A stretch of DNA of 64,000 nucleotides. Source: an uncultured Kiritimatiellota bacterium. GTDB lineage: Bacteria; Verrucomicrobiota; Kiritimatiellia; RFP12; UBA1067. Of this stretch, positions 43,716-64,000 are shown piece by piece. The notes under the pieces are model-generated. The model worked only from the letters and a program-made list of their open reading frames with translations. It did not search any database and was not told the origin of the DNA. Every line of letters starts with the position of its first letter. Position 1 is the stretch's first letter. Made by a program: the position numbers and the translations under genes. The DNA lies in contig CAKTUI010000008.1 in the NCBI GenBank assembly GCA_934621385.1, positions 2,455 to 66,454 on the forward strand, in the 5' to 3' direction.

Positions 43716-44843
43716 TCACCGCGCCCGACGACGCAAGATGCTTCTTAACGCACCCAGTATCGCATCCTCATCCCATTGCGTATTTTCAAGTCCAAACGTA
43801 ATGCGGATCGTGGACTCGGCAATCGCCTTCGGCACCCTAATCGCCTTGAGAACATGAGATACCTGCGTATTCTTCGAGTCACAGGCGGCACCCGTCGAAA
43901 CCGCGATACCCTTCATATCCAGAATATGCATCACTCCCTCAGCCGAATTGCCCGGAAACGCAACACTCACAAACCCCGGCAATCGTTTTGCGTCCGTTCC
44001 ACCAAGATAGACCACATTGGGAAAGAACGACCTCATCCCTTTGCAAAATCTTTCAGCAAGCCTATTCAGATGGACTGTATTCCTTGCCATATTTTCGCAG
44101 TTATACCGCAGAGCCGTTGCCATGCCGACGATTGATGCAACATTTTCCGTTCCCGCGCGAAGGCCGTTCTCTTGTTGCCCGCCATTTAGCAACGGTTCGA
44201 GTTTCATGCCCTTGCGAATATAGAGGAATCCGATGCCCTTGGGACCATTGAACTTATGTGCGCTCGCAGACAGAAAATCAACCCCCGCTTCCTGCACATC
44301 AATCGGGATGTGACCGACTGCCTGAACTGCATCGGTATGGAACAACGCTCCACGTTTATGTGCGAACTCTGAAAGCAAATGAATTGGATTGATTGTGCCT
44401 ATCTCGTTGTTGGCCATCATCACAGAGACAAGTCCAATCCCAGCCGTCCAGACCTTTGAAAGCCGCTCCGGCATGATGTACCCGCCACCATTACCAACTT
44501 TGGGGCGGACAAATATCACCTCGCGGCCTTTACGCGCTTCGCTTGCGGCGGCGTTTAGAATTGCGTGATGTTCATATGACGAAACAAGCAACCCGCCAGA
44601 AGAGCCCTTAATCACCCAATTGTCCGCTTCAGTACCACCACTCGTAAAGAATATCTCATCTGGTTCGGCATTGATACACTCGGCAATCGTCGCTCTCGCA
44701 TCCGCGACCGCCTTTTTCGCCGGTCTCGCCCATCCATGCAGACTTGACGGATTTCCGAAATCCTCCTTCAAGAATGGAAGCATCGCCTCCAACGCCTCTG
44801 GCATCAGAGGTGTTGTCGCGGCATGGTCGGCATAAACTTTCAT
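43716..44843 (-). CDS. Cysteine desulfurase (class V aminotransferase; NifS/IscS/DndA/SspA-like)
   Basis: PLP-lysine motif SAHKFNGPKGIGFLY and active-site Cys loop STGAACDS. Its ATG overlaps the stop of the upstream small ORF (ATGA). G+C is about 40-57% on sampled lines. Confidence 0.85.
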   Translation of the reverse strand: MKVYADHAATTPLMPEALEAMLPFLKEDFGNPSSLHGWARPAKKAVADARATIAECINAEPDEIFFTSGGTEADNWVIKGSSGGLLVSSYEHHAILNAAASEARKGREVIFVRPKVGNGGGYIMPERLSKVWTAGIGLVSVMMANNEIGTINPIHLLSEFAHKRGALFHTDAVQAVGHIPIDVQEAGVDFLSASAHKFNGPKGIGFLYIRKGMKLEPLLNGGQQENGLRAGTENVASIVGMATALRYNCENMARNTVHLNRLAERFCKGMRSFFPNVVYLGGTDAKRLPGFVSVAFPGNSAEGVMHILDMKGIAVSTGAACDSKNTQVSHVLKAIRVPKAIAESTIRITFGLENTQWDEDAILGALRSILRRRAR

Positions 44844-45975: not shown

Positions 45976-45979
45976 CTTA

Positions 45980-46504
45980 TTACACCTCCGCCACCCACGC
46001 TGGAATTGAATATGATTGCCCTGTTGTGGCAAGTAATTGCAAGGCCGCACCTATCCTATGATTCCCATCCAAGACATGGAATCGTCCCATTACAGGATAA
46101 ACAGCGACAGGGAGCTGATAGGTCCCGCTACGCTGAAGAATGGCGATGTGGTATTCCGTACTCTTTCTACAATAGTCATAATCGTATGTAGGATGTCTAA
46201 AGAATAACGTACCGTTATAATTTTGAAGCAGCCCATCGATGTCCGCTAAAGATTGTTGGGTTATATTGAATATGCTTGGTATGAATGATGCAGTTCGCCA
46301 TTTACAGGACGATTGCTCATGTAAGGACACTACAGAGAATATTCTATGCCAGGGCGTGTTGTATGTGAAATCCATGCATGAGTGAAATGGCCAATTGCCC
46401 ATGTCGTTAATGAGAGCCCTTATATACATATCGAACAACTGGTCTGGCATCCTTGAAAAGATGCCGCGCGCAACTGCTATATGCCGTTCTAAATGGTTGT
46501 CCAT
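45980..46504 (-). CDS. Hypothetical protein with a C-terminal ParB/Srx-like DGxHR motif
   Basis: QLPVAVYPVMGRFHVLDGNHRIGAALQLL resembles the ParB N-terminal / DGQHR-type (DndB-related) fold signature. Confidence 0.5.
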   Translation of the reverse strand: MDNHLERHIAVARGIFSRMPDQLFDMYIRALINDMGNWPFHSCMDFTYNTPWHRIFSVVSLHEQSSCKWRTASFIPSIFNITQQSLADIDGLLQNYNGTLFFRHPTYDYDYCRKSTEYHIAILQRSGTYQLPVAVYPVMGRFHVLDGNHRIGAALQLLATTGQSYSIPAWVAEV

Positions 46505-46727: not shown

Positions 46728-48215
46728 TTACGCCTCCTTCCGTATCTTGAGAGCCGGCAGATCTTTTCCCCTGTATTGCTCGTTCATAAGGCCCATCTGG
46801 TAGCGGATGGTATAACGCATCTTCATCGCCGGTCTAAAGCAATAACGCACAAAATCCTTCTCGGAGATGTCCGCCGGGGTGCGGACATTCGGGAATAGCA
46901 ATTTTATAAATGCCGTTGAAATGCGTTTGACCGCTTCAGTGTCGCGCTCGTCTGACCCGGACGGCACGTCAATCAATTCGTCAACAACGTGTCTATAGGA
47001 GCTATCGTCACGTAGCTGATGCAGAATCGCCGTAAAATACTCGGAGTTCAAAGCCCATCCGTCGATTTTGAGCGTACTGTTCATGCGTGGGATATTCCAT
47101 CCCTTAATAAAGCCGTGGAAGCGGTCAATCATCGCGGCATCTTGAAACAGTTTAGGTAGATTAGCAAACATATAGGCATAACCATCCTGCTTCATAATTT
47201 CAGGTGCGATGTTGCCGCACAAGACAAATCCGGAGTCCGCAGAGCTGGAGTAATTGCCAACCGAGAACGTCCCTTGCTCCAGATATCCCTGCATTACGCT
47301 CCCCATGCCATCCTCAAAGATCGTCTTTTGAATTTCATCCAAGACGATAAAGTCGTTTTGTCCGACGAGTCCAGACTCACGGCGTCCTGCATCATAGAAA
47401 AGTTTTGCGCGGGTCATCTTGTCGCTGGTGGAAAGCCAGCCATAGCGACTCACTTGCCCGAACAAGTAGGATTTTCCCGTCCCCATCGGAGCAAGCTCCA
47501 TCAAATTGAGGCGTTTTTCCGCAAATGGCAGCACTCGCGAAAGCATGGTCAATTTCATTATTTGCAGATCAGGAAGTTCTGCGTTCTCCGCTTTCGCAGC
47601 ATCATACCCCTCTGCCTTATAGTCAACCGCTCCGAGAATAATGTCAATCCATTCTTGGATCGAAAATTCATTACGTACGTCTTTGTAATAGTTCAAATCA
47701 ATGTCATACGGGCAGAAGTCCCGGAATGAGAGAAGCCTTATCTTACCGGGCATTTTAGGACGCGCCGTATCATCCGGCGGACGATATCCAAGCTCCAGCA
47801 TTCCCCACGTCTCATGCCCAGATGCCAACTTGCCTCTGCACTTGTCCCAGACATCAGCATCAATCATCGTCTCGCGATTCCGAAGACCAAAATCAGGCAA
47901 AGAGAAAGTCACTTCTCCAGTGACAACGTCTATGTTTACAACAATCTTAGCGAGTAGCTTGACGTGCTCAAAGCCAACCACGATTCTGTCTTTGATGCGC
48001 GTCCAGTCATCGTGTTTTGGTATGAATTCGTGGACAAAAGAAAGCATTTCTCCTGCGTCGAACACGCCGTCCGCATTCTCGAACCTTTGCAATAGCCAGT
48101 CGCGCATAAACGACGGCAACCCTATCGTCTTGAAGAGACTTGTCTGCGTCAAGTCCTTGAACACTGCCATCGACTCGAAGCACTTACGAAGTTTATCTGT
48201 GGTTTCCTGTGTCAT
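46728..48215 (-). CDS. brxL: BrxL-like ATPase, short form (no Lon-protease-like C-terminal domain)
   Basis: Walker A LAPMGTGKSYLF and Walker B FIVLDEIQ. The N-terminal region LPSFMRDWLLQRF resembles BrxL / TIGR02688-type proteins (from memory). Strong AAGGAGGT RBS. Confidence 0.65.
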   Translation of the reverse strand: MTQETTDKLRKCFESMAVFKDLTQTSLFKTIGLPSFMRDWLLQRFENADGVFDAGEMLSFVHEFIPKHDDWTRIKDRIVVGFEHVKLLAKIVVNIDVVTGEVTFSLPDFGLRNRETMIDADVWDKCRGKLASGHETWGMLELGYRPPDDTARPKMPGKIRLLSFRDFCPYDIDLNYYKDVRNEFSIQEWIDIILGAVDYKAEGYDAAKAENAELPDLQIMKLTMLSRVLPFAEKRLNLMELAPMGTGKSYLFGQVSRYGWLSTSDKMTRAKLFYDAGRRESGLVGQNDFIVLDEIQKTIFEDGMGSVMQGYLEQGTFSVGNYSSSADSGFVLCGNIAPEIMKQDGYAYMFANLPKLFQDAAMIDRFHGFIKGWNIPRMNSTLKIDGWALNSEYFTAILHQLRDDSSYRHVVDELIDVPSGSDERDTEAVKRISTAFIKLLFPNVRTPADISEKDFVRYCFRPAMKMRYTIRYQMGLMNEQYRGKDLPALKIRKEA

Positions 48216-48234: not shown

Positions 48235-50409
48235 TCAAAAGAAATCGTCCTTTTTAATTTGTGCGCCACCGCTCTTCACCACGAAACGCACATCGTTGAT
48301 TTTTGTATTCCCGTCATAAACAACCGCAACATGGTCACCTGCAGAAGGCTTGGGGATTCGGACAGTGTAGCGTCCCGTTTCATTGCCGTCGGCAATCGCT
48401 GCATAGCTGATTCCATCGAATCTGACAGAAGGCGACATCAATGTTGAGGCGCAGAACAGCTGAAGAGTTATTTCCGTATCGCGGAATGTTACCTTGAATT
48501 CGTCTTCCACAAGGCGTACATGAACATTCTTGTCGAGCAATTCAAATTCTATGACCGGCACTACCATTTCCTCCAATGTAGCACCTCCGTGGATTTCAAC
48601 ATCGCCTTTCCTGCCGCCTTTGAAACGGTCGTATCCAGCAAGAACGTGCCATTTCTCGTCATCACTTTCCGTAACACAAGCCGGAAGGACGCCATCGAAC
48701 TCGCTTTTCCGACAGCATCTTCCACCATGTTTTCCTTTCTCCGGCAATTCCCACACCGTTTCAGACTTGGAAATCACAGCAAGGCGAGTCGCTCCGTGAT
48801 CGCTTGTGAGAACAACCTTGCTGCCGGGCTTCTTGCGAAGTCGCATTGCTATTGCATTTATAGACTCCTCGACAACTATCAATTCATGCGGCAGTTCCGT
48901 GGCTGCACCAGTTGACGGCTCGTCGTATTTCTCAAAGTCACCATGCTTTATCTTGTCTAGTCTGGATACAGGAGGCATCTTTTCGCCCTGCCATTCATCA
49001 TAGAAAGAGCGATTGACGCTAGTTATGGAAGGTAATTTCGCCCTGGCAGGCGTGACTTTCAATTTAAGGCCAAGGCGCTCTGCGGCAGATTGAATAAAGC
49101 CAAGGAATTCACAGCCGAGAGCGTCTATCCAGCAAAGAGCAACGCCATTGGTGCCAATACTTTCAAGAACGGACTCGCGTGTCGGCAAAGTGAACTGCGG
49201 ACGGTCTTCGGCAAAATCACGAGCAGCATCCATGAAGCTAGGCTCAATTCGCCCTAATAATTTTTGCCGTTTATAATCCTGAAAGTACTTCGCAAGCACC
49301 TCCACGAACTCACCACTCGAAAAGGAAAATCCGCGCCAGTAGTTCCACATCGCTGGGTATACATTTTCCACAGACACAGGAACCTCTCCTGCGTCCACAA
49401 TCAGCCGTGTTATCTCCTCGCGCTCCACCTCTGTGCAGTCCGTCATGTAGCGGATGCGTTCCGATGGATTGGCAATCCGTCGTGATTCGCGGATGTACTC
49501 AGTCACATCAGCCTTGTCAAATTGCGGAACAATCTTTTTCCTTGCATCATAGAGCCGAGCAAAACGACCATCGTCAACTGAAACATCAAGGATTGCGCAG
49601 AGAAGATTTCTGTGCCACTCTGAATATTGCCTGGTTTTCGATATGGCAAATGCAATATACTGGTCGTCGCCAGTACCGTCTTCAAGGAATCTCAAGAGTG
49701 AATCCGGACTTGACAAGCTATCATCGCGAGCTCGCTCATCATTCAGGAATGCCGTCCATTGTTTTTCTGGGAACATTGTCTCCAGGACGGGACTTTGAGG
49801 ATGCCGTTCCTTATACACTTCATATGCGGAATCAATACGGCGACACCAGTTTGTGTTTAAGGGAACAACTGTCGTTATGGCAGTTATCGAATTATCGCAA
49901 CCGTCCTCAAGAATCCGCAAGAGCGCCCTAAAGCCATTTGCTTTTGCGTTCTTGATAAGGCCGTCTCGAAAAATACGTAGCGACCAATGTTTTTCGGATT
50001 TTGCGAAGGACACGCCTCTTCGGCCCAGTATTCGAGGATCGTTTCTTGACTCTTCTTCGATAAACTCATGCACGCCCCATACTGGTACGACAAGACGAAG
50101 GCTGTGCAAAGGAAGCCCAAATATCCATTTCTTCACTTCTCTGTCGCCAGAAAGCGCAGCGTATTCGCCAATGCCAAGAAGAATCGCCTTGCCCTCCATG
50201 TGTGTAAGCGTGTCGCCAAGAGCGTCCAAGTCTGGAAGCGCATCGGATGCTCGGCAGAAATCGCTGACACGTACCTTCTCGCATGAGGAAAGCGATGTGA
50301 CAAGCATTGATAGGTCTGTGGACGCATCAAACGCCACGAAAAACGGGTTAGTCGCACCATTCCCGTTCAGATATTCCTGCGCAGCATTGACAATATCCAT
50401 GATCATCAT
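48235..50409 (-). CDS. pglZ: PglZ alkaline-phosphatase-superfamily protein
   Basis: 724 aa with CWIDALGCEF and VVLTSDHGATRL motifs characteristic of the PglZ domain. ATGA overlap with brxC. Confidence 0.8.
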   Translation of the reverse strand: MMIMDIVNAAQEYLNGNGATNPFFVAFDASTDLSMLVTSLSSCEKVRVSDFCRASDALPDLDALGDTLTHMEGKAILLGIGEYAALSGDREVKKWIFGLPLHSLRLVVPVWGVHEFIEEESRNDPRILGRRGVSFAKSEKHWSLRIFRDGLIKNAKANGFRALLRILEDGCDNSITAITTVVPLNTNWCRRIDSAYEVYKERHPQSPVLETMFPEKQWTAFLNDERARDDSLSSPDSLLRFLEDGTGDDQYIAFAISKTRQYSEWHRNLLCAILDVSVDDGRFARLYDARKKIVPQFDKADVTEYIRESRRIANPSERIRYMTDCTEVEREEITRLIVDAGEVPVSVENVYPAMWNYWRGFSFSSGEFVEVLAKYFQDYKRQKLLGRIEPSFMDAARDFAEDRPQFTLPTRESVLESIGTNGVALCWIDALGCEFLGFIQSAAERLGLKLKVTPARAKLPSITSVNRSFYDEWQGEKMPPVSRLDKIKHGDFEKYDEPSTGAATELPHELIVVEESINAIAMRLRKKPGSKVVLTSDHGATRLAVISKSETVWELPEKGKHGGRCCRKSEFDGVLPACVTESDDEKWHVLAGYDRFKGGRKGDVEIHGGATLEEMVVPVIEFELLDKNVHVRLVEDEFKVTFRDTEITLQLFCASTLMSPSVRFDGISYAAIADGNETGRYTVRIPKPSAGDHVAVVYDGNTKINDVRFVVKSGGAQIKKDDFF

Positions 50410-53400
50410 TCCTTTGAAAGGATCGCAAGCCCTACATCAAGCGAATTAACGACAAGATCTACGAGGTACTGCTTTGCTTCATCCGCACTCATTGCCCTTA
50501 CTTTTCCGCGCACTCTCTCAGCACAGTTCAAGTTGTATTCGCTTTCGGCAAGTTTCTGGAGCGTTGCTTCAAGACGCGGATCGACAAGCCAGCTGTCTGG
50601 GTCTGCACTCAACTTGTTCAGTCGAGACCTAACGGACGCAAGGTCTGTCAGCACTACCGCATAGCGGCCGAGAACGCCGCGTCGGAATGCATCGTCAGCC
50701 TTTTCCCCGTCAAACCAACAAAACACTTCTGGGTGTACAGTAAAGAAATCGAGTGCCGCATCGACATTTGCAACGGACGATTCCTTGTTATTCAAAGCAC
50801 CTATTGCCTTACGGACGCCGTCCAGAAGTGGCGTCCCCTCTGCCGGCACCATAGCGAGAACTGGTGTTGCAAATTGCTTCGCCCATGCCGACGGAGTTGT
50901 CGTGCCGGTTTCTTCATTCCACAGCGATAGCAACTTTGTCCGTCCCTGTTGACTTTTAATTTCAGAGACCTTCTGGACGAGCATCTGCTCGTAGGTCGGC
51001 TTATCGGCAAGGAACGACGATTTGTCCAACCCAGTAAGATAAAGATCATCCATCTCCTGTGTGTCAAGCCCTGAAAGTTGCTCGCTGTAAGTTGCCTTGA
51101 ACAAAGCAAGGCATCCTTCAAGCATATCACGGTTGACATCACCCATATCGGTGATTTCACGGAAGAACGCATCTCGCCTGTCATTCTGTTCCAGCCGCCC
51201 CCCAGATGCAATGTCCTTTAGAAGGCCAAGGAAGGTCTTGGATTGCGGCTTAAGTGCCACAAGAGTGGCACAGGGGATACGTATCGTGCGCGTTTTATCC
51301 CGCCACGCTTCCATACACTCCCAGAAAGAATTCACCGGCGTTATGAATCCACGCTTGGACGATTCCGCAACTATGCGGTAGTCCCTCAAAAGTGCGCGTA
51401 TTTCATTTTCTCCAGTCTCACGATGCCAGAGCCATGCGCCGTCAGTACCGAAACAACGACGGACATCAGCAAGAGGGTCGGAAGCGTTTATTTCTTCCGC
51501 CGTCTTTCGGAAAAGCCCATCATCAAATTCGTCAAGCCAAGCGTTCATTGCTTTAGTGGCATTTTCCTTTGTGAACAGAGCCGAAAGCCTGGCCTCCACA
51601 CCGGGATCACCTGCTGCCATGCGTCCAATCTCGGTTGCAACGCCGGAGAGCGTGGCACCTTTCTGATTGGCCGGATTGGTGAGGAGAGTAAATTGCTCGA
51701 TGTAGCGTTCCGAACCGACGGACTCAGGCAATGCCTCGAAACACCACAAGGGGTATTGGAAGTCGCGTATTCGCACGGCCAAATCATGCGCCACAATGTC
51801 TATCGAGGCATTCTCCCCAAGGTTGAACACCGCCTTTGCAAGATCTGCGAACCGCCGCTGTTCCTCTGTCAGAACTCCGATGTATGCTTCGTGATATCTT
51901 CCGCTACCAGTGCCGAGAACCTTCTTAAAACAGGCGAGAATCGCCTCTGTCATGTTCGCCACAGTGAGAGGCGGACTTTCTCCGTCTCGGACGAAGCGAT
52001 AATCCCCGCCCACATATTCTTTGAGGAGATATCCCACAAGAAAACCGTGCAACGCAGTAGGCATGAATCCAGCATCGAAGAGTGTTTCTATAATTTCGCC
52101 AAACTCGACTCTGCCTTCACCGCCAGACTTGAATGCGTATTTGAGCTTCTGCTCTACCTTTGACTTGATCTTGGAGATTGTCTGTGTAGGCGCGACTTTC
52201 CAATAATCCACTTTGTCTTTAACAGAGCCTATAAGGGCGTTTTCTGATGCGGCATCCATCTTGCCGCCTTTCTCCCCATTCGGGAGATGCCCAAGGCCAC
52301 CATACACGCCGGCGGACACCTCGGCTTTTGTCGCTTGGTTGAACTGAGTGTCTTTCAAGCCACGCTCAAACTCAAGCGCAAGTGGATACTTTTCAAGTAC
52401 CGACAAACGCATCTCTTCTCCAACCTCAGAAGCCCCGTGGCAAACCACACCAGTTGCATTTCGCTTCGTCCGCACGGTAAACGCACCAGTTGCAATTTTG
52501 TCTCTCCATGCGGAAAGTATCTTCTCCGCCTCGGATAATGCATTGTTGGACTGTTGCGCGTCTTTGCGAGCATACCAATTTGCTCTGGCCTTGTATTCAG
52601 CCCACTTTGCGAAATCGCCATCATCCAATTCCACGGAAGTCGCATCGATGAATACTACATTGCCGCTTCTCGGATCTGCGAGTGCCTTGCTTATCGCCTC
52701 TTTTGCAGCAACTGCATCCAGACTGTTCCGGCCAACCACAATCATGGCTCGCATCCTATAGTTCTTGGCATCTTGAGCCAAGAGCTGTCCAAGAATCTGC
52801 GAGAACGAATCCGGACCAGCAAGGCGTATGTCGAATCTCTCCTCCAATGGACGCGACAGCCGAAGCACCTCTTCGCGTTGCCAATCCTTCAGCAGTTCCT
52901 TCGTCTTGGTTGTATGGAGGTAATTCTCCTTGAGTTTTTCAATTTCCTGCAAATCGCGACCACCGGTGGCCATTGGTGCCTGATAGACACGCTTCCCATT
53001 CACCTCTTCCACAAAAAGAATCTTGTCGGAGTTTGCAAGCTTGTTGGCAAGTGTTATTCCCGTGCCGCTTTCGAGACCCTCCACGCCCTCGAACGCAAGG
53101 CGAAGATTCTCCTCTGTCGCAAGAAACTCCGGCGGATTGTTGAGTTTCTTTGCAAGCGCCTGAAATATGAGAATAGTTTTCAGAACACGCTTCTCGGCAG
53201 AAACGAGCTTGCTGGATTTGTCGGGATACACTTCGAGAATCGCCCTTACTTGTGCATCTAGATTGCTCTTCCCGGTTTCGCCGGTACCTCTCAGCGTCTT
53301 GCCAGTCTCGTAGAAGTAGTCCCAAAGCAGATCAACGCCTAGCACGTCACCGTTCTCTGGGGAATGGTTCTTTATGTACCACTTAAACGCACGGGCATCC

Positions 53401-54620
53401 TCTTCCGCAGCAATAAACGTGAACATACTCCGTTGATTAGAGTCAAAAAGCGCGGCGATGTTCTTGAGAGCCAATGCGGCATATGGATGAAAAGGCAGCA
53501 TAGCACGAAATACGCCCTCATCAACGTCCTTAAGCATCTTCGCAATCTTCCGCCGCGGTTCCTCCATGCGCTCGTTCAAATCGTCAGAAAGCGCATCCCA
53601 CTCCTGTTTGAAAGCAGGCTTCACCTTCAGCGCATCGCCGATCAGCTCAAATGCAATGTTTTCAGGAAGGCTTATCTCCATCGTCGGCTTGAAACGGTCG
53701 ACAATAATTTGTGCAGAATTGTCGTTTTCCGGCAGGAACGATGTCGTGAAATGGGTTACAATCACAAGATTGAATCTAGTCAAGCCGGAAAGTTCCGCAA
53801 GCGACTGCAATGTATCGAGCTTCGTCTTGTTGTTCTTAAAGAACGCAGAGAACTCATCCCACACAAGTATGAGATGCAGATTGTTCTTCTCTACAGTTTC
53901 GCGTATCCAGGATGCAAGGTCTTCCTTTGAGAATCGTAGCGCTGTTATACCCTTGTCCTTGGCGAGACGACGGATTTCCTTAAGCAGATCGTCCGCCATA
54001 CCGCTTCCCTTTAGTGTCGCAAGCACATCGTCCGCAGACTTGCCGGCGAAGCATCCCTTATGGCAATATGGCGATTCCTTAATAAGCGCGTTGAAATAAG
54101 CTCGTTCTGTATTGCCCTCCAACCACTTGGCAATGCCACCACGCAGGGTCGCACCCGCATCGTATGGTACGCCGGAGTCCTCCAGCGCCTTTGAAAGACT
54201 TGAAAAGACGGCCTCAACAAGGTCTTCCGGGCCGGATATTGCATCAGACCCGTGCCGAGCGGCAACAACGATTTTTCTCGCCTTCCGATGACCGGCGAGT
54301 TTCTTTTTAAGGTCGCCCTCTGCTTTGAGAGGCGCATAATCATCGAAGTATGTGTTGAAATCAACATCGCTGCAGGTCAGAAGGCTACGAAGCGTCCACG
54401 TCACCTGGCTCTTGCCTGTACCATACGCGCCATGAACCCAAATGGAGTGTTTGTCCATCTCGCTGCCGCGCGCAAGCATCTTCTCAAGACGCTTCAAAAG
54501 CGCGACGAAGGTCTTGTGGGGGTATGTCGCTTTCCATCCGTCCGGATGCGCATCAAATGTGGCCTGTGTAATCTCTGGCGGATTGTACTTAAGCTGGAAG
54601 TAATCGCTGTAGTTGGACAT
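50406..54620 (-). CDS. brxC: BrxC/PglY-like P-loop ATPase (1404 aa)
   Basis: Walker A VHGAYGTGKSQ and Walker B LILVWDEF near the N-terminus of a very long protein. Start set to the ATG at 54620, 9 nt after AGGAGG. The tracked start at 54641 overlaps brxP. Confidence 0.75.
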   Translation of the reverse strand: MSNYSDYFQLKYNPPEITQATFDAHPDGWKATYPHKTFVALLKRLEKMLARGSEMDKHSIWVHGAYGTGKSQVTWTLRSLLTCSDVDFNTYFDDYAPLKAEGDLKKKLAGHRKARKIVVAARHGSDAISGPEDLVEAVFSSLSKALEDSGVPYDAGATLRGGIAKWLEGNTERAYFNALIKESPYCHKGCFAGKSADDVLATLKGSGMADDLLKEIRRLAKDKGITALRFSKEDLASWIRETVEKNNLHLILVWDEFSAFFKNNKTKLDTLQSLAELSGLTRFNLVIVTHFTTSFLPENDNSAQIIVDRFKPTMEISLPENIAFELIGDALKVKPAFKQEWDALSDDLNERMEEPRRKIAKMLKDVDEGVFRAMLPFHPYAALALKNIAALFDSNQRSMFTFIAAEEDARAFKWYIKNHSPENGDVLGVDLLWDYFYETGKTLRGTGETGKSNLDAQVRAILEVYPDKSSKLVSAEKRVLKTILIFQALAKKLNNPPEFLATEENLRLAFEGVEGLESGTGITLANKLANSDKILFVEEVNGKRVYQAPMATGGRDLQEIEKLKENYLHTTKTKELLKDWQREEVLRLSRPLEERFDIRLAGPDSFSQILGQLLAQDAKNYRMRAMIVVGRNSLDAVAAKEAISKALADPRSGNVVFIDATSVELDDGDFAKWAEYKARANWYARKDAQQSNNALSEAEKILSAWRDKIATGAFTVRTKRNATGVVCHGASEVGEEMRLSVLEKYPLALEFERGLKDTQFNQATKAEVSAGVYGGLGHLPNGEKGGKMDAASENALIGSVKDKVDYWKVAPTQTISKIKSKVEQKLKYAFKSGGEGRVEFGEIIETLFDAGFMPTALHGFLVGYLLKEYVGGDYRFVRDGESPPLTVANMTEAILACFKKVLGTGSGRYHEAYIGVLTEEQRRFADLAKAVFNLGENASIDIVAHDLAVRIRDFQYPLWCFEALPESVGSERYIEQFTLLTNPANQKGATLSGVATEIGRMAAGDPGVEARLSALFTKENATKAMNAWLDEFDDGLFRKTAEEINASDPLADVRRCFGTDGAWLWHRETGENEIRALLRDYRIVAESSKRGFITPVNSFWECMEAWRDKTRTIRIPCATLVALKPQSKTFLGLLKDIASGGRLEQNDRRDAFFREITDMGDVNRDMLEGCLALFKATYSEQLSGLDTQEMDDLYLTGLDKSSFLADKPTYEQMLVQKVSEIKSQQGRTKLLSLWNEETGTTTPSAWAKQFATPVLAMVPAEGTPLLDGVRKAIGALNNKESSVANVDAALDFFTVHPEVFCWFDGEKADDAFRRGVLGRYAVVLTDLASVRSRLNKLSADPDSWLVDPRLEATLQKLAESEYNLNCAERVRGKVRAMSADEAKQYLVDLVVNSLDVGLAILSKE

Positions 54621-54633
54621 TACTGTTTCCCTC

Positions 54634-56910
54634 CTATACATTGAACAAGGCTATGACGTTAGCGGGAGTCTTGTCATCGGCGAGACGAACAAGCTCCAGG
54701 TCGTGTGTAGTGGTAAACGTAACGAAATCTGGATTTGTCCGTGAAAGCCCATTCAGGAGCGCCTCCATTTCGTCGCGCGCGAGCGCAAATATCTGCGCCG
54801 GGCTAACCCCCTCCGCCTCAACCGTGAAGTCCATAAGGCGTGAGAGAGGAAACTCCCAATATCCGCCACACTTTTCAGCGAACTTGTAGAGCGCATAAAG
54901 CATGACAAGCGGCGACGGCGCAACCGTCTTCGTTCGAGTGAGCGAAACGATGTCCTGTCCCTTTGATACGACCCGACCAAAGTGGAAGCGCGTACTTAGC
55001 GGTATGTTGCACAGCCTTCCGAATGCGCGAATAACCGACATCACCCCATCTGGCTTAAGCCCAGTGACAGCTATCATGTCGTATAGTTCCTGACGGGGGT
55101 ATTCGCGCCCCACATCCATATTCCGCACATACCATTCGATTTGTGGATTGTCATATGAGAGGTTGGTGAGAATCAAACCCCATGTATCCTCTGCGTTCAT
55201 GCCTATCCGCCTTGCTAATTCAAAGAATGGAGTTGCCTTATTCTTTGCAAGCAGTCCGGCATCTGAAAGGAAGCGTTTAAATTTAGTTATCTGCATAGGC
55301 CCCAGCGAGTTGTTTGACACAAAGTCAGAACCTCGGGAAAAGAAATCCGTGACCCATTCTGGCTTCGGGGCGTGCGTAGCGAATGTGTTTATGCTTTTCA
55401 TGTCTATTCTCTCCAGTGTTGCCTTCTTAAGTGAATCGGCTCGATAGCAGCCTTTCTCAATTTCATGGCATAGTCCGCAATGTATGCAATTGTCAATGTG
55501 TAGCCCATTCTTAAAAGAGAGCGCACCTGAACGACAATTCGCCTCACATTCACCGCATCCAACGCAATATGATGCCTTATAAAAACATTGTTTGAGCCTC
55601 CTACCAAGAGAGGTCTTCGTGAGTGCGGACGGATACGATACTATCAGCACACCATCTGATTCTGTGGCTTCTAAATCAACAGGTCCATTTAGTGTCTTGA
55701 TCCATTCTCGCCAGTCTGTTGTTGGATTAAGAAGGCGAAGTGTCGTACGGCCATCTTTGGTTGCTTCTTGTATCTTCTCTTCGTTACCCTTAATGTCCCT
55801 GCCGTTCTTTCGAGCGACCCATCCACATTTCGCAATATATTCATTTGTGTCAGGGCAACTAATGCTACTCTTTACGTAATTAATAAATCGGTCAACGCCA
55901 TCCTTATAGGCAGTATGCTCAAAATAATCAGAACGGCCACCTGCACCGAGGGGACAAAAAAGACACCCTACGCGCACCATTCCCTTTACATAGGCACCGT
56001 TAATGAGTAATTGACGCGAGAAAATATAAATCCAAACCTCTGCGCTTGACCATTCCTGCATCGCATTGAAGGAGTATTGCCCCATCTGTTTCTTACTAAA
56101 ATTCAGATAGTCATACTGTGAGCGAGCATCACTCTCATGTCCTCTCACTCCAACAAAAGCCATTCCCGTATAGTCTCTTTTCCCGAGTATCTCGCGGATT
56201 TTGAGCGTCTGAGGGACGGACTTATGGACGGTACAGCACCATCTAAGAGCATGTGATGGCGGTCCGAAGAGCCGCCACGATTCCTCTGGCGTAAAACAGG
56301 ACTTTGCACGGTAAAACGCGATACCATCCGCCTTGCATCTCGCTTCCACAGCCTCAACGGCTTTATAGGTGTCAGGGAATTCCATCCCCGTATCGCCAAA
56401 CACAACCATGAATGCGGTGCGGGGCAATGCGCGACGGACGAGTTCCAGAAGCGCAATCGAATCTTTGCCGCCCGAAAACGCCACATGGAAACAATCAAGC
56501 TTCTTTTCGTATTTGCGATAGATGTCGTATATCTTCTTGACGGTGAGCGTTTCCAGCGCCTCAATACGGAGACGGTTTTTTGCGATCATCGCCTCAACAT
56601 CCACGGGGATGAGTGTTGTTCCCTTTGGAAGTATCTCTTTGCCGGCCTCGTCCCTCAAGAGTTCAATTTCTGGTTTTACATAGAGGGAGCCGCCATTCGT
56701 CTTGGCTACCTTTTGACCGCGATACCAATAAAAATTCGACTCGGCCCAGAGGTACGGGGCGTCACTCGTGTTGTCATATTTCCAGAAATCTCCAAACCCC
56801 AACAAGTCGAGTTCTGCCGCCCATACTGGTCTGGGTTCTTTTGAGAATTCCGAAAGCGAATCCGCAAGTAGCAGGCCTCCTGTTTCTGGATCATGTGAAT
56901 ATGTGTACAT
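54634..56910 (-). CDS. brxP: BrxP-like PAPS-reductase / PP-loop ATP pyrophosphatase with an Fe-S cluster region and a ~250-aa C-terminal domain
   Basis: PP-loop AFSGGKDSIALLEL. PAPS-reductase-family body. Ferredoxin-like CVGCGECEANC...CIHCGLCHEIEKGC. The real start MYTYSHDPETGG at 56910 overlaps the upstream stop (TAATG). Confidence 0.8.
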   Translation of the reverse strand: MYTYSHDPETGGLLLADSLSEFSKEPRPVWAAELDLLGFGDFWKYDNTSDAPYLWAESNFYWYRGQKVAKTNGGSLYVKPEIELLRDEAGKEILPKGTTLIPVDVEAMIAKNRLRIEALETLTVKKIYDIYRKYEKKLDCFHVAFSGGKDSIALLELVRRALPRTAFMVVFGDTGMEFPDTYKAVEAVEARCKADGIAFYRAKSCFTPEESWRLFGPPSHALRWCCTVHKSVPQTLKIREILGKRDYTGMAFVGVRGHESDARSQYDYLNFSKKQMGQYSFNAMQEWSSAEVWIYIFSRQLLINGAYVKGMVRVGCLFCPLGAGGRSDYFEHTAYKDGVDRFINYVKSSISCPDTNEYIAKCGWVARKNGRDIKGNEEKIQEATKDGRTTLRLLNPTTDWREWIKTLNGPVDLEATESDGVLIVSYPSALTKTSLGRRLKQCFYKASYCVGCGECEANCRSGALSFKNGLHIDNCIHCGLCHEIEKGCYRADSLKKATLERIDMKSINTFATHAPKPEWVTDFFSRGSDFVSNNSLGPMQITKFKRFLSDAGLLAKNKATPFFELARRIGMNAEDTWGLILTNLSYDNPQIEWYVRNMDVGREYPRQELYDMIAVTGLKPDGVMSVIRAFGRLCNIPLSTRFHFGRVVSKGQDIVSLTRTKTVAPSPLVMLYALYKFAEKCGGYWEFPLSRLMDFTVEAEGVSPAQIFALARDEMEALLNGLSRTNPDFVTFTTTHDLELVRLADDKTPANVIALFNV

Positions 56911-58817
56911 TAGCGTTTCTCCAATTCTTTCATTCTGGAAACTACCGCCCCGACGGTTTTTGTCGAGCGACGCAGAACACATTGCGTCGCAACGAGAAAG
57001 TCTCCAACTTCTTCCACATCTGCCGCGACACCGCAACGAAGAGCTATGGTAGCAAAGGCATCCTCCGCGCTCCATTCGCAGTTCATGCACGGAACGACTG
57101 CACCCGATACATCTCTTGCAGGAACAGACGGTGACACAAGGCGAAATCCTGTGCTGGCTCGACGCAAAAACGCCTCAAGCAGAAACTCATTCCAAGCGAA
57201 CCCAGGAACCGCAGGAAAGTCCGCCAGATTGCCAAATGCACCGAAAGGCATTATGCATCCTTCACATATGTCCGAAATTGATTTTTCAATCGACGAAACA
57301 TCAAATGTGATCAGCGCCGGCGAAACAAAACATTCCCGGTCGACACGCACCATTTCTTCATGTGCGGTCTTCAGTGCTAACCACGGTGCAATGTTGTATT
57401 CTTTTGCGACTGTCTCTAGTTGTTCAAGCGACACATCAGGCCTTTCGCGCAAGAATGCATGAAGAGGAATCTGTCCATCTATACTTGCACCTTTTGCACA
57501 TACGATCTGCCCGTGAATGTCGAATTGCTCTGATAAAAAACGCTGGAAGAATGAGCGTCGAAGCGCACTATCCACCAACCTTCGGTCGTTCATGGCTGCG
57601 CTGTCATTGAGACACAATTGAGAAAGGGAGAAAAATCCCTCGGCTTTGATTGCGGTTTCACATTGCGATTTCCCGCGAGAGACCTCCGCATCATCGAATT
57701 CGATCCGTGATACGATGGCATACGAATTCTTACCGTTCCTGACCAAATCGCTCAACCTCCTACACAGACTACGAATAAACGCCATGTCCACATAGGGCAC
57801 TCGCTTAGAAACCACACTTATGTCAATAACAGGACCCCTTTGTGACATGATAATTGAATTAAAGTGCTGAGTAATCGACCCCGCCCACTTGGGCACGAAG
57901 CATTCCCCTTCAATCTGATATGTATCTTGCGCCTCCCGCATAATTGCCTCTCGAAACATTTCGGGAGAGATGATGCCAATTTGCATAAGTTCTTGTCCAT
58001 GGAACTCCATCAGGCGCGAAAACTGAAATATGGAGTATCCTTGTCCGACAAGTCTTTCGATAAGCTTACGCCACCCGCCATCTTTGGATGATGGCCGAGG
58101 AAACACTTTCCCGTCGTGAATAACGCCTATTCTCGGAAAGACAGAATTGAAGTCAAAGTCCTTCGGCAAATCCTCGTCGAAATACTCGTGGTAAAACTTG
58201 CGGATTTTATTACGGTCGATTATCGAACTGGGTCTGACTCCGTTTGGGAACTCCGACTCCAACAATTCAGCAATCTGATTTTCATAGGGGAATTCATTAC
58301 CATCCCAATCGCATCGCCCCGGCATCGCTTCCGTCCTTTCCTCTCCATCGGCCGAATGGGGCGGACATAGGAGACCTTCGCTTTCTTTCGCGTCACTTTT
58401 CTCCGCTGAACGAAAATCTCTGTATGTGACCCGGACATCATCGTTGGACAAATTGCACCACTCAATAAGCTTGAGGGCTCGCAAGAAAGGAGTGCTACCC
58501 GACCCATTCAAGTCGATGTAACAATCCCGATCAATCTGATAAGGGTTGGCCATCCCGTACCGCGTTGTCCGCAACCACCCCAGATCCTTGGTTCTGATGA
58601 GCCGCTGCAATTGCCACCCCTTGAAGGTCCACAGGTGCTTGGCAAGCGAAACGAGGACATCATTCGCAGAGTTCACCGGAACCGTCTTCCCGATGATTTG
58701 CAAAGCGCTCAGTTGCGCCCTTGGGGGCATTTTCTTCACTGCGTCAACCAGTGGGCAGATATAGGATAGGCCTGCTGTTGAACAGCCATTGGATTCCGAA
58801 AACTCACAATCAGGCAT
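56910..58817 (-). CDS. Hypothetical 635-aa protein, first gene of the BREX-like operon
   Basis: An uninterrupted ORF with RBS GGAGGA 10 nt upstream of the ATG. Its stop overlaps the brxP start. I recognise no catalytic or binding motif. Confidence 0.7.
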   Translation of the reverse strand: MPDCEFSESNGCSTAGLSYICPLVDAVKKMPPRAQLSALQIIGKTVPVNSANDVLVSLAKHLWTFKGWQLQRLIRTKDLGWLRTTRYGMANPYQIDRDCYIDLNGSGSTPFLRALKLIEWCNLSNDDVRVTYRDFRSAEKSDAKESEGLLCPPHSADGEERTEAMPGRCDWDGNEFPYENQIAELLESEFPNGVRPSSIIDRNKIRKFYHEYFDEDLPKDFDFNSVFPRIGVIHDGKVFPRPSSKDGGWRKLIERLVGQGYSIFQFSRLMEFHGQELMQIGIISPEMFREAIMREAQDTYQIEGECFVPKWAGSITQHFNSIIMSQRGPVIDISVVSKRVPYVDMAFIRSLCRRLSDLVRNGKNSYAIVSRIEFDDAEVSRGKSQCETAIKAEGFFSLSQLCLNDSAAMNDRRLVDSALRRSFFQRFLSEQFDIHGQIVCAKGASIDGQIPLHAFLRERPDVSLEQLETVAKEYNIAPWLALKTAHEEMVRVDRECFVSPALITFDVSSIEKSISDICEGCIMPFGAFGNLADFPAVPGFAWNEFLLEAFLRRASTGFRLVSPSVPARDVSGAVVPCMNCEWSAEDAFATIALRCGVAADVEEVGDFLVATQCVLRRSTKTVGAVVSRMKELEKR

Positions 58818-58944
58818 ACGCGCACAATCCTCCAGGACTCTTTACGCTACCCTCAGAAATAAACCGCCAAGACCCATCCCCAAGCCAAGGACAGGCCTGC
58901 ACCAAGCAAGCCAAAAGCCTTGATTTTGAGCGTGGGCTGTTACT

Positions 58945-58959
58945 GGGGGGGGGGGGGGG
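58945..58959. repeat. Homopolymer G15 (C15 on the operon strand) in the predicted 5' leader
   Basis: Counted directly. It lies 128 nt upstream of the ATG at 58817. Confidence 0.95.
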
Positions 58960-59057
58960 TATTTTGGGCACACAAGCTCACCAGCGCAAGATTTTGCGCC
59001 GTCACGCCCACAATTGGGCAAGTCGAAACTAAGCCCGACCCCATCATCTCGCCCAAT

Positions 59058-59066
59058 AGTTTACCA
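59058..59066 (-). promoter_or_regulatory. Extended -10-like element TGGTAAACT inside R2 (candidate operon promoter)
   Basis: Plus-strand agtttacca, conserved with R1. The implied leader is ~230 nt. Confidence 0.35.
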
Positions 59067-59323
59067 TAATTCACATCCCCTGTGCTCAACAAACGGCACA
59101 GAAATTGCAAAATAAAGCGAGTCGGCACAAAAGAAAAAGAGAACTGGCGATTCGCAGAAAGTGCCGCGCCTTCACAACGATTGCGCGGCGGTTTTTAAGA
59201 CCCAGAACGAATGGTCATTTCGTGTCCAAAGCGGAAAAGGTTTGCCAAGCAACTTAGAACTTCATTCCATCCCAACTGGAACTCGTGCGAGTTGCAAGTC
59301 CAACTCACAAAAGTTCCGTGTTC

Positions 59324-59418
59324 AAAATCCCCCTGCCTGACTTGCAATTTACCGCTCGCACCCTCTCCCAAGAAGAGGGTGCAGGCAGGGGCGCGGCGGA
59401 CGCAAACCGCCGCGCCCC
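59324..59418 (-). terminator. Nested GC-rich hairpins downstream of trpA, the outer one followed by a T run
   Basis: Hairpin 1 is GGGGCGCGGCGG/CCGCCGCGCCCC (59388-59418). Hairpin 2 is CACCCTCT/AGAGGGTG (59359-59381). The outer pair is CCCCTGCCTG/CAGGCAGGGG, followed by ATTTTG on the minus strand. Confidence 0.5.
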
Positions 59419-59427
59419 TTGGTTGGC

Positions 59428-60186
59428 TTAGTGTTTCGCCGCGAGGAAACGCTCGACCAGTGCACTGCCGATGACGAATCCGTCGCAGTGCGCGGCAATT
59501 TTCGCGCCCTCCTCCGGCGTGCGGATGCCGAATCCGGCCACGACAGGCACACGCGTCAGCGACTTAATTTCAGCCAACCGTGCAGCCAGTTCGGGCGGCA
59601 GATGCGCCCGCTGTCCTGTCACACCCTTCACTGTCACCGCATAGAGGAACGAGTCCTCCATTCCCTCGGCACTCGCCCGAATGCGTTCCGCACCCGTTGT
59701 TGGGGACAGGAGCGGCACAAGCGTCAGGCCCTGCGGACGCAACACGTCCAGCAATTCGCCGCGCTCCTCCAGCGGGAGGTCGACGACCAGCACGGCATCC
59801 ACGCCCACGCGGGCCGCTTCTGCCGCGAAGCGTTCAATTCCGTACTTGTAGATGGGGTTGTAGTAGGAGAAAATCACGAGCGGCGTATCGGGATGCCGCG
59901 CCCGGAGCGGCGGAATGCTCGCCAAGACATCCGCCAGCGTGACCCCATTCGCCAGTGCCAGATTCGCCGCCTTGCGAATGACGGCACCATCTGCCACCGG
60001 GTCTGAGAACGGAACGCCCAATTCGAGGATGTCCGCCCCTTCCGCAAGGAGCGTTTCCGCTGCGGCAAAACTGTCCGCCAGCGTCGGAGCCCCCATCGTG
60101 AGATAGGCGACGAACGCGCCGCGTCCTTCGGCATGGGTCTTTGCAAAGAGTTTCTGAATCCTGTTCATATCCGTTTGTCCTTTCAA
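59428..60186 (-). CDS. trpA: Tryptophan synthase alpha chain
   Basis: 252 aa with typical TrpA motifs (ELGVPFSDPVADG, GFGI). Confidence 0.9.
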   Translation of the reverse strand: MKGQTDMNRIQKLFAKTHAEGRGAFVAYLTMGAPTLADSFAAAETLLAEGADILELGVPFSDPVADGAVIRKAANLALANGVTLADVLASIPPLRARHPDTPLVIFSYYNPIYKYGIERFAAEAARVGVDAVLVVDLPLEERGELLDVLRPQGLTLVPLLSPTTGAERIRASAEGMEDSFLYAVTVKGVTGQRAHLPPELAARLAEIKSLTRVPVVAGFGIRTPEEGAKIAAHCDGFVIGSALVERFLAAKH

Positions 60187-60189
60187 TCC

Positions 60190-61383
60190 TTAGTTCTGAG
60201 AGGCTTCCTGTGCCCGACGCTGCTTGTAGGCCTGAATGCTGTGGAGATCCTTATCGCCGCGCCCGGAGAGGTTGACGAGCAGAATCGCGTCCTTCGGCAG
60301 TTTAGGTGCGCGCTTGATGGCCTCGGCCAGGGCGTGGCTCGACTCAAGTGCCGGGATGATGCCCTCGAATCGGCAGAGCGCATCGAACGCGGCAACAGCC
60401 TCATCATCGCAAACGACCGTGTACTCGGCGCGTTTTGTGTCGGCGAAATAGGCGTGCTCGGGCCCGACACCCGGATAGTCCAGTCCGGCCGAAATGGAGT
60501 AGGTATCGATAATCTGCCCCGAGGGTGTCTGCAGGAGATAGGTCTTCGAGCCGTGCAGCACACCGACCGTTCCGCCGTTGATGGAGGCCGCGTGCTGGCC
60601 GGTGGCAAGGCCCCTTCCGCCCGCCTCCACGCCCACGAGCCGGACGGATGGGTCATCGACGAAGCCTGCGAACAGTCCCATGGCGTTCGAACCGCCACCC
60701 ACGCAAGCGATTGCCTGGTCGGGCAAGCGACCGAATCGCTCGATGCACTGCCGCCGCGCCTCCTTGCCGATGACGCTCTGGAAGTCGCGCACCATGGCCG
60801 GGTAGGGATGCGGACCGGCCACCGTGCCAATGACATAGAAGGTGTCGTCGCAGTTCGCCGCCCAGTCCCGAAGGGCCTCGTTCATCGCATCCTTCAGCGT
60901 GGCACTGCCTTCCGAAACAGCGTGGACCTTCGCGCCCAGCATCCGCATACGGTCGACATTCGGAGCCTGTCGCTCAACGTCAATCGCACCCATAAAGACC
61001 TCGCACTCCATGCCGAACAGCGCAGCGACGGTGGCTGTTGCCACACCGTGCATGCCCGCACCCGTCTCGGCAATGAGACGCTTCTTGCCCATCCGCCGCG
61101 CCAGAAGGGCCTGTCCAATCGTGTTGTTGACCTTGTGCGCACCAGTGTGGTTCAGGTCCTCGCGCTTGAGGAGAATCCGCGCTCCGCCGAGATGGTCCGA
61201 AAGTCGCTTCGCCTCTGTCAGCGGACTCTCGCGTCCGACATAGTTCTTCAGGATGTCCGCAAACTCCTGCTGGAAGGCGGGGTCGCGCTTCGCATCCTCA
61301 TAGGCCGCCTCCAGTTCGTTGATGGGGGTCATGAGTGTTTCGGCGATGTACTTTCCGCCGTAGATACCGTAGTGTCCGTTCAT
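60190..61383 (-). CDS. trpB: Tryptophan synthase beta chain
   Basis: 397 aa with [16 protein letters not shown] (PLP lysine) and GGGSNAMG. Confidence 0.95.
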
Positions 61384-61419
61384 TGAATGTTTCCTTTCAA
61401 ATTGAATGATTGTCTTGAG

Positions 61420-62193
61420 TCAGAGGAGTTCCCGGAGTTTCGCCGCCGGGCGTTCGGCCCGCATGAGCGTCGTTCCAATCAGGAAACCGTCGGCACCCGC
61501 CGCCTGCAACCGCGCCATATCGTCCGCCGTGCGAATGCCACTCTCGGCAATGCGCGTACGATCGGACGGAATGCGCCCAATCAGTTCCGCCGAGATGGTC
61601 GGGTCTGTGTGAAACGTGCGGAGATCGCGGCAGTTCACGCCAATCACCTCGCACCCGAGACTGACTGCGCGGTCAATCTCCTCCGCCGTGTGCGTCTCGA
61701 CGAGTGCCGCAAGCCCGAATTCGTGGGCCAGGTTCCGCAGTTCGCGAAGCTGGGCATCGGGCAGGACGGCCGCAATCAAGAGGATGGCATCCGCGCCCAT
61801 GGTCCGGGCCGCCGCAACCTGATACGACGTGGTGATGAAGTCCTTGCACAACAGGGGGACATCCACCGCACCGCGCACGGCGGACAGGTAGGCACGACTC
61901 CCGAGAAAGCGATGGGGTTCGCAGAGGACGGACAATGCCGCCGCACCAGCATCCACCAGTTCACGTGCAAGTTCCACCGGGTGGAAGTCTGGTCGAATCA
62001 GCCCCTCCGAGGGGGATGCCTTTTTCAGTTCTGCCAGAATGTGCCGTTCGCGCCCCCGAAAGGCCGCACGGAAATCACGCGTCGCGGACATCTGCCCAAT
62101 GCGCCGGACGAGTTCCGAAAAGGGCACGGCCTTCTCGGCCTCCATCGCATCGGCGCGGCGCGCCGCACTCAGTTCCTCAAGTATGTCGCTCAT
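61420..62193 (-). CDS. trpC: Indole-3-glycerol-phosphate synthase
   Basis: 257 aa with ILAELKKASPSEG and the KDFI motif. Confidence 0.9.
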   Translation of the reverse strand: MSDILEELSAARRADAMEAEKAVPFSELVRRIGQMSATRDFRAAFRGRERHILAELKKASPSEGLIRPDFHPVELARELVDAGAAALSVLCEPHRFLGSRAYLSAVRGAVDVPLLCKDFITTSYQVAAARTMGADAILLIAAVLPDAQLRELRNLAHEFGLAALVETHTAEEIDRAVSLGCEVIGVNCRDLRTFHTDPTISAELIGRIPSDRTRIAESGIRTADDMARLQAAGADGFLIGTTLMRAERPAAKLRELL

Positions 62194-63737: not shown

Positions 63738-63760
63738 GGACTTCTTTCCTTTCTTCTCTC

Positions 63761-64000
63761 TCAGAGTGTCGCCGCAAACCGCGCCGCCTCGAAAATGGCC
63801 TTCGACTTGTTCAGCGTCTCGCGATATTCCTTGACGGGATCCGAATCCGCAACGATTCCCGCACCTGCCCGCATCTCAAGGCGATTTCCCTCAAGGAACA
63901 TCGTGCGGATGACGATGGCGAAGTTCATGTCGCCCGTGTAGCTGAAGTAACCGGCAGCCCCACCGTAAATGCCGCGAGGCGACTTCTCAAGCCCGGCCAG
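63761..64000 (-). CDS. trpE: Anthranilate synthase component I, C-terminal 79 codons (5' part off the window)
   Basis: My translation of the minus strand is LAGLEKSPRGIYGGAAGYFSYTGDMNFAIVIRTMFLEGNRLEMRAGAGIVADSDPVKEYRETLNKSKAIFEAARFAATL*. Not in the ORF track because no start lies within the window. Confidence 0.85.
   Translation of the reverse strand: MAGLEKSPRGIYGGAAGYFSYTGDMNFAIVIRTMFLEGNRLEMRAGAGIVADSDPVKEYRETLNKSKAIFEAARFAATL

Follow-up and report, generated by a model that had tools for sequence, protein, structure and literature searches.

Herein, we describe a 635-amino acid (aa) protein, X, encoded by the first gene of a type 4 bacteriophage exclusion (BREX-4) operon in a 64,000-nucleotide (nt) stretch of DNA from an uncultured Kiritimatiellota bacterium (GenBank assembly GCA_934621385.1, contig CAKTUI010000008.1, positions 2,455 to 66,454). 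The whole stretch is called the window. On balance, we favor the view that X is a genuine, unlisted component of type 4 BREX, translated with BrxP and acting, without enzymatic function, as a modular adaptor or recognition subunit. The evidence comes from the position of its gene next to brxP in distant lineages, from a predicted fold of consecutive winged helices, and from N-terminal modules that vary across the family.

The leader gene and its BREX-4 context

X was first pointed out in a reading of the sequence alone (the original prediction), which described an unrecognizable protein with a good ribosome binding site and a stop codon coupled to the brxP start. The open reading frame (ORF) and both signals were found in place:

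56910..58817, minus strand: ORF of X, the 635-aa leader protein, ATG start, stop codon included (ORF confirmed)
58828..58833, minus strand: GGAGGA, a Shine-Dalgarno-like site 10 nt 5' of the X ATG
56908..56912, minus strand: TAATG junction of the X stop (TAA, 56910-56912) and the brxP start (ATG, 56908-56910), with one shared base

The downstream gene is indeed brxP. X gave no match in Pfam, NCBIfam, PADLOC, or PDB sequences, either as a single sequence or as a 19-sequence profile, and in these searches it is as unrecognizable as described. Public data hold a 635-aa protein that is 99% identical to X (P0001). The G+C content of X (49.4%) is like that of the BREX genes (48.7-51.1%) and differs from that of the flanking trp genes (62.5%), so X is part of the same acquired island. 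The predicted likeness to the BREX genes therefore stands, whereas the predicted value of about 43% does not. A promoter and terminator scan 5' of X found none, with a consensus that may not suit the host organism.

An exhaustive search of 1.84 billion cluster representatives placed X in a family of 1089 representatives at E ≤1e-3, and 807 at E ≤1e-10. A word-indexed search returned 47 relatives only, all without a Pfam domain. A narrower family profile scan of genome contigs gave three close relatives only, and tblastn of 72,556 plasmids found no X-family member. The source names of further members include Synergistaceae, Desulfotomaculum, and Clostridia.

Genomic context was sampled at 20 loci with family members 22-76% identical to X, a convenience sample of the 1089 representatives. 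The sample includes metagenome-assembled genomes (MAGs) of Kiritimatiellia, Lentisphaerae, and Selenomonadaceae (one MAG for the last), an archaeon of the genus Methanoculleus, several metagenome contigs, and four contigs labeled as viral (see below). At 19 of the 20, the family gene lies directly 5' of BrxP-BrxC-PglZ(-BrxL) in the same orientation. The leader stop overlaps the brxP start or lies within 5 nt of it at 11 of the 12 loci where this junction was measured. X and its relatives, down to 22% identity, thus co-occur with and adjoin the core BREX-4 genes across distant lineages, including an archaeon. A neighborhood survey for brxP or pglZ had been proposed together with the claim that X works with BrxP, and its outcome agrees with that claim. 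The sole locus without an adjoining brxP (L013) has lost brxPCZL. There, the leader is followed by DUF3791, DUF3990, and HATPase_c_4/HTH_24 genes (L013 8001-11945) and then, 1.6 kb downstream, by a BREX-4-type cysteine desulfurase akin to that of the window (E 2.4e-97). Because this desulfurase is kept, the locus looks like a remnant BREX-4 island with a replaced core.

In the window, brxP, brxC/pglY, pglZ, and brxL are consecutive on the minus strand, the gene content of BREX type 4, and a cysteine desulfurase gene lies beyond them:

54634..56910, minus strand: BrxP, 758 aa, with PAPS_reduct, Fer4 (4Fe-4S ferredoxin-like), and a C-terminal match to a second PADLOC BrxP model (PADLOC E 1.4e-231)
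50406..54641, minus strand: BrxC/PglY ATPase, 1411 aa (PADLOC BrxC E 1.6e-201)
48235..50409, minus strand: PglZ, 724 aa, DUF7864/7863/7862 (PADLOC E 1.4e-90)
46728..48215, minus strand: BrxL, 495 aa (PADLOC E 5.6e-190)
43716..44843, minus strand: cysteine desulfurase (SspA/DndA-like), ~1.9 kb past brxL at the distal end of the low-G+C island (PADLOC SspA 4.4e-117, DndA 1.9e-116)

No methyltransferase was found within 42.5-58.8 kb of the window. BREX-4 writes phosphorothioate (PT), and its writer enzyme is BrxP, which carries a PAPS-reductase domain (PMC12914056). The suggestion that X replaces a missing methyltransferase module was therefore not upheld, since BrxP itself is the type 4 modification enzyme and writes the PT mark, and X has no catalytic fold.

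Fold, modules, and divergence of the X family

X was modeled with AlphaFold2 (AF2) from a 43-sequence alignment, and its N-terminal module (N-module) was modeled alone in a second run; both models are single chains. The full model has a mean predicted local distance difference test (pLDDT) score of 85.9, with per-10-residue values of ~87-97 over residues 180-630. It is built, in order, of an alpha/beta module (residues 17-134), a disordered acidic linker (137-175), about six winged-helix units from residue 177 on, and a terminal three-helix unit. These parts and the most conserved patch of the family, with isoelectric points (pI) where calculated, are as follows:

58410..58772, minus strand: N-terminal alpha/beta module (~120 residues, about residues 16-136), pI 9.6 (AF2 pLDDT 91 alone)
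58290..58409, minus strand: disordered acidic linker, residues 137-176, pI 4.25 (pLDDT <50)
56913..58289, minus strand: conserved C-terminal array, residues 177-635, ~six tandem winged helices and a three-helix unit (AF2, Foldseek, family alignment)
57189..57218, minus strand: top-conserved family patch DFPAVPGFAW, residues 534-543, running on into helix NEFLLEAFLRR, residues 544-553 (conserved columns; patch and helix lie in DFPAVPGFAWNEFLLEAFLRR, residues 533-553)

The linker confirms an acidic segment that had been predicted. The statement that X has no clear helix-turn-helix (HTH) motif is correct for a reading of the sequence but fails in substance, since the model contains about six winged-helix domains. 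Assignment to the tandem winged-helix class follows from the repeated H-(S)-H-H-S-S units, the high model confidence, and matches of the array in the PDB. For the array, the PDB matches from Foldseek were all tandem winged-helix proteins, namely, UFL1 (5.9e-06), the SelB C-terminus (2.1e-05), Stn1, STK19, Dcc1, and TFIIIC, with a Foldseek probability of 0.97-1.0 for UFL1, SelB, and a UFL1/DDRGK1 chimera. UFL1, the SelB C-terminus, Stn1, STK19, and Dcc1 share consecutive winged helices with X (E 5.9e-06 to 2.5e-04), and several of these proteins serve as adaptors for proteins or nucleic acids and are not enzymes. TM-scores are low (0.14-0.28, at 8-14% identity) because only the repeat unit superposes, and nothing points to common descent or shared function.

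The AlphaFold and Foldseek analysis, which the original prediction had recommended, thus yielded winged helices and no catalytic fold: no enzyme fold was found among the Foldseek PDB matches or in the AF2 model. Columns that are invariant across the family hold F, G, N, P, W, L, and S, with no conserved residues of catalytic type. In the patch, invariant or near-invariant columns are F534, P535, W542, N543, L546, and L551-R553. A motif check of X found no NPPY/DPPY, no S-adenosylmethionine (SAM) motif I, and no PD-ExK. The earlier statement that Walker, SAM-binding, and NPPY/DPPY motifs are lacking was also sound, with two loose [AG]xxxxGK[ST] strings (residues 38 and 377) as the only qualification. 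Since these strings are unconserved in homologues and sit in elements of the model outside any P-loop fold, X was rejected as a P-loop NTPase. It was likewise rejected as a PglX-type or other DNA methyltransferase, having no such motif, no Pfam or PADLOC match, and no Rossmann fold in the AF2 model. C4, C12, and C21 exist as described. They lie in a disordered N-terminal segment, and C4 and C12 are substituted in the 92%-identical N-terminus of a leader protein from a sister strain (P0044, see below), so these cysteines do not form a metal site. Zinc sites were rejected altogether because the N-terminal cysteines and the CxxC pairs at 518-521 and 577-580 are unconserved in close homologues.

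Among the matches listed, all align to residues ~180-635 of X and do so at their own C-terminus, in proteins of 460-1582 aa. Because the alignment always covers the C-terminal ~455 residues, the family is defined by the array behind a variable N-terminus. N-terminal domains in relatives include HARE-HTH, Mrr_N, sigma-70 region 4, HHH, ankyrin repeats, WG-beta repeats, and further unnamed modules, and those with Pfam names are of DNA-reader or protein-binding kinds. The N-module of X itself, which has no Pfam match, recurs in 63 of 180 family proteins searched with hmmsearch, at varying positions and sometimes in two copies per protein. Some weak fold matches serve as leads only: the SeqA DNA-binding domain (3fmt_A, TMq 0.46, root-mean-square deviation 2.6 Å over 92 columns, E 1.2, probability 0.69), 1iu3_C (E 1.0), and a giant-virus methyltransferase domain (E 0.04).

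Charge differs between the two parts of the protein. The array is neutral to acidic (pI 5.5), and no winged helix is consistently basic among 19 diverse members, while the N-module is basic, with a mean net charge of +4.7. Judged by its charge, the array is less like a polybasic DNA binder than like a scaffold for proteins, and together with the basic N-module it would fit a scaffold bearing a nucleic-acid-binding head.

X is the most diverged operon protein relative to the window in every locus compared, yet its divergence keeps pace with that of BrxP, BrxC, and PglZ. Identities to the window are as follows:

L001: X 72%, BrxP 75%, PglZ 88%, BrxC 93.5%
L002: X 45%, BrxP 67%, PglZ 59%, BrxC 69%
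Distant systems: X 22-28%, BrxP 47-54%, PglZ 29-35%, BrxC 31-38%

Comparison of close relatives gives 88-96% identity for the PAPS-reductase part of BrxP and 87-94% for BrxC, but only 38-76% for the central and C-terminal part of BrxP (residues ~250-650). This contrast indicates that BrxP has a hypervariable region of its own, which co-varies with X.

A sister strain (L003) records a probable exchange at this site. Its trp operon is 97.7% identical to that of the window (window 59158-64000, L003 4624-9466, blastn), and a very different BREX-4 cassette, with a BrxP only 32% identical, occupies the same trp site. The two strains also share one segment that reaches into X:

58415..59168, minus strand: upstream region and X codons 1-134, 94.7% identical to L003 9650-10403 (blastn)

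Nucleotide homology ends at window position 58415, which is the exact end of the X N-module. As the two ends coincide, the module boundary is also a recombination boundary. A shared flank and N-module followed by a different cassette suggest that the cassette was exchanged with one breakpoint inside the leader gene.

The leader of this divergent BREX-4 is P0044 (L003 10001-12916), a 971-aa protein built largely of such shuffled modules, with at least three types that also occur in X-family N-termini. We considered its remainder as a divergent winged-helix array and rejected this (hhalign probability 0.2%, no detectable array). A broader, mosaic class of leader proteins may exist.

Proposed role and rival explanations

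In the role that we favor, the array would anchor X to the BREX-4 core, with BrxP as the most likely partner and the near-invariant patch FPxVxGYxWNxFLLESFLRR as a candidate docking interface. The swappable N-terminal modules would contact DNA or an invader-derived cue and could thereby help direct or license the complex in self/non-self discrimination. A docking array combined with such heads would make X an adaptor or recognition subunit. When brxP, mcrA, and brxC were expressed in B. thetaiotaomicron, the PT dinucleotides and their proportions matched those of the native host (PMC12914056). Because these genes suffice for the native PT pattern, a need for X is less likely in the sulfur chemistry than in target recognition or in restriction. 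A bolder extension, which we offer tentatively, is that X is a modular reader or discriminator. Its interchangeable heads would choose the DNA, by motif, modification state, or invader signature, that BrxP-BrxC-PglZ-BrxL modifies or restricts, and strains would re-target by recombining cassettes at the head/array boundary, as at 58415.

Several points weigh against the adaptor role. The predictions behind the proposed docking are of single chains, and the 20 loci are a sample of convenience. The winged-helix fold alone is compatible with DNA, RNA, or protein binding, and an array that is not basic does not imply DNA binding by the array. Fold searches with the N-module in the PDB and BFVD gave no significant match. 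PT was also reconstituted from brxP, mcrA, and brxC, so that, in that system at least, the chemistry can probably proceed without X.

An unlikely alternative, which takes up the specificity partner of the original prediction, is that X is the site-specificity subunit of the PT writer, like HsdS of type I restriction-modification or DndE/SspB, reading the 4-nt motif and positioning BrxP-BrxC. X and BrxP residues ~250-650 are most diverged where BrxC stays 87-94% identical, which is the pattern expected of specificity determinants. The HARE-HTH, Mrr_N, and sigma-70 region 4 heads of relatives are DNA-binding domains, and PT ATPases have been described as paired with a co-evolving site-determining protein (review, PMC12707154). 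However, the native PT pattern was obtained with no leader added (PMC12914056), from a Bacteroides source that may or may not have an X homologue. According to published HHpred analysis, BrxP already has an SspB-like DUF4007 domain for DNA binding (PMC12914056, PMC12839542). A Pfam search of the window BrxP found no DUF4007 at E ≤0.01. The acidic to neutral array and the protein-binding ankyrin or WG-beta N-termini of some relatives also speak against this reading.

Those N-termini would instead suit a role in which X senses phage-encoded proteins such as anti-BREX inhibitors, or acts as a decoy for them, and triggers or shields the effector arm without engaging DNA. The shuffling of such modules, the standing of X as the fastest-evolving gene of the operon, its acidic to neutral scaffold, and the nature of its closest folds (UFL1, Stn1, Dcc1, and ESCRT-II, all protein-protein scaffolds) point in this direction. 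The basic N-module of the window protein (pI 9.6) and the DNA-binding types of head in relatives point away from it, and no phage partner is known. We consider a sensor or decoy quite improbable.

X could also control operon transcription as an autoregulator, in function an analogue of BrxR. Regulators often lead defense operons, and X is a first gene that encodes many winged helices. Nevertheless, this reading is very improbable. X is translationally coupled to an enzyme gene and is neither separately nor divergently transcribed. Its ~455-residue array has no consistently basic domain, unlike known repressors, and Pfam found neither a WYL domain nor any other regulator domain in X. Conflict-facing proteins typically diverge fast and shuffle their modules, as X does, and separate small HTH_3/HTH_31 genes just 5' of X in L018 and L019 argue that X is not the operon regulator. 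BrxR resembles X in leading BREX loci and in having a winged helix. It is a protein of ~300 aa with a wHTH-WYL-WCX (wHTH, winged HTH) architecture and is separately transcribed, whereas X has no WYL domain, is at least twice as long, and is coupled to brxP. Membership of X in the BrxR/WYL regulator family was rejected on its different architecture and the lack of a WYL-type Pfam match.

Finally, that X is an unrelated hitch-hiking or spurious gene beside brxP is hardly credible: a lack of annotation in any family library would suit it, but it is contradicted by 1089 homologous representatives, a confident structure prediction, and adjacency in 19 of 20 loci from bacteria and an archaeon.

Returning to the adaptor role, known systems offer partial parallels. 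BrxA of types 1 and 3 and the DUF4007/SspB domains of BrxP/Ssp systems are, like X, HTH or winged-helix proteins without an enzymatic fold at or near the operon 5' end, and BrxA and DUF4007 are thought to bind DNA or organize the complex (PMC12839542, PMC9240713). They hold three HTH/wHTH units in ~200-350 aa, against about six winged helices in ~455 aa, plus variable heads, in X. X is moreover additional to BrxP, the protein described as carrying DUF4007 in the published HHpred analysis. Neither X nor 18 relatives matched the BrxA or DUF4007 Pfam models (PF08849, PF13182) at E ≤1. A split or duplicated DUF4007/BrxP domain was rejected for X (hhalign of X against the BrxP profile, probability 1.8%). 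The tripartite arrangement of one HTH and two wHTH units was also set aside, as X has about six winged helices and a helical unit and SspB (6LB9) fell outside the top 50 Foldseek matches. Subunits of the HsdS/DndE type are likewise non-catalytic, fast-diverging, and modular, lie beside the modifying enzyme, and carry variable recognition modules on a constant docking part. Their fold differs from that of X, and a role of X in setting the PT motif would be an analogy, the published reconstitution having been achieved without it (PMC12914056). By analogy, X may work like non-catalytic partners of the BrxA, DndE, or HsdS type.

The literature has so far described BREX-4 without X. Published deletions cover mcrA, brxC, brxZ, brxL, and HMPREF1532_02796, none of which is a leader gene (PMC12914056); HMPREF1532_02796, an "unknown" gene, is 3' of brxL by locus-tag order and hence no leader. 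The 2026 component lists of PMC12839542 and PMC12914056 name BrxC, PAPS reductase, DUF4007, PglZ, BrxL, a cysteine desulfurase, and a small zinc-finger protein. A multi-winged-helix leader goes unmentioned in the two texts, and their figures or neighborhood tables might depict it. Recognition of type 4 BREX, defined by the four genes brxPCZL, as a PT system is recent (2024 preprint, published 2026). X is a fifth gene in almost every sampled locus, from PVC bacteria to a methanogen, and is absent from Pfam, NCBIfam, and PADLOC. It is thus an obvious candidate for a recognition or adaptor role in BREX-4 target choice and in the link between modification and restriction. Minimal brxPCZL constructs for defense tests may be incomplete, and a profile for the X family would improve BREX-4 system calling.

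Neighboring genes and mobile contexts

The cysteine desulfurase of the window is the likely sulfur donor for BrxP. An association of type 4 BREX with a cysteine desulfurase has been reported (PMC12839542), and the window gene fits this recently proposed sixth component. Between brxL and the desulfurase, three overlapping small ORFs (176, 227, and 174 aa) occupy 44840-46504 on the minus strand. Nowhere else in the window is the G+C content as low as in this stretch (41%). None of the three ORFs matches a family credibly, and they may be accessory to the island. A gene of unknown function likewise lies 3' of brxL in B. salyersiae (PMC12914056). Past the desulfurase, at the island edge, 42577-43533 on the minus strand encodes an HTH-Fic protein that matches the PADLOC candidate defense family PDC-S04 (E 4e-89).

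Among the sampled loci, complete X-BrxP-BrxC-PglZ(-BrxL) operons occur on contigs catalogued as viral, namely, L015 (GenBank MT835511) and L020-L022 (IMG/VR). A phage-type integrase lies 5' in L018, and an MrpR-type recombinase lies 5' in L019. Prophages or other mobile elements may carry BREX-4 and its leader; alternatively, the viral contigs may be misclassified. Small genes directly 5' of the leader in the same two loci, at L018 8482-8793 (103 aa, weak BrxA match) and L019 2854-3135 (93 aa, HTH_3), are candidates for the real operon regulator.

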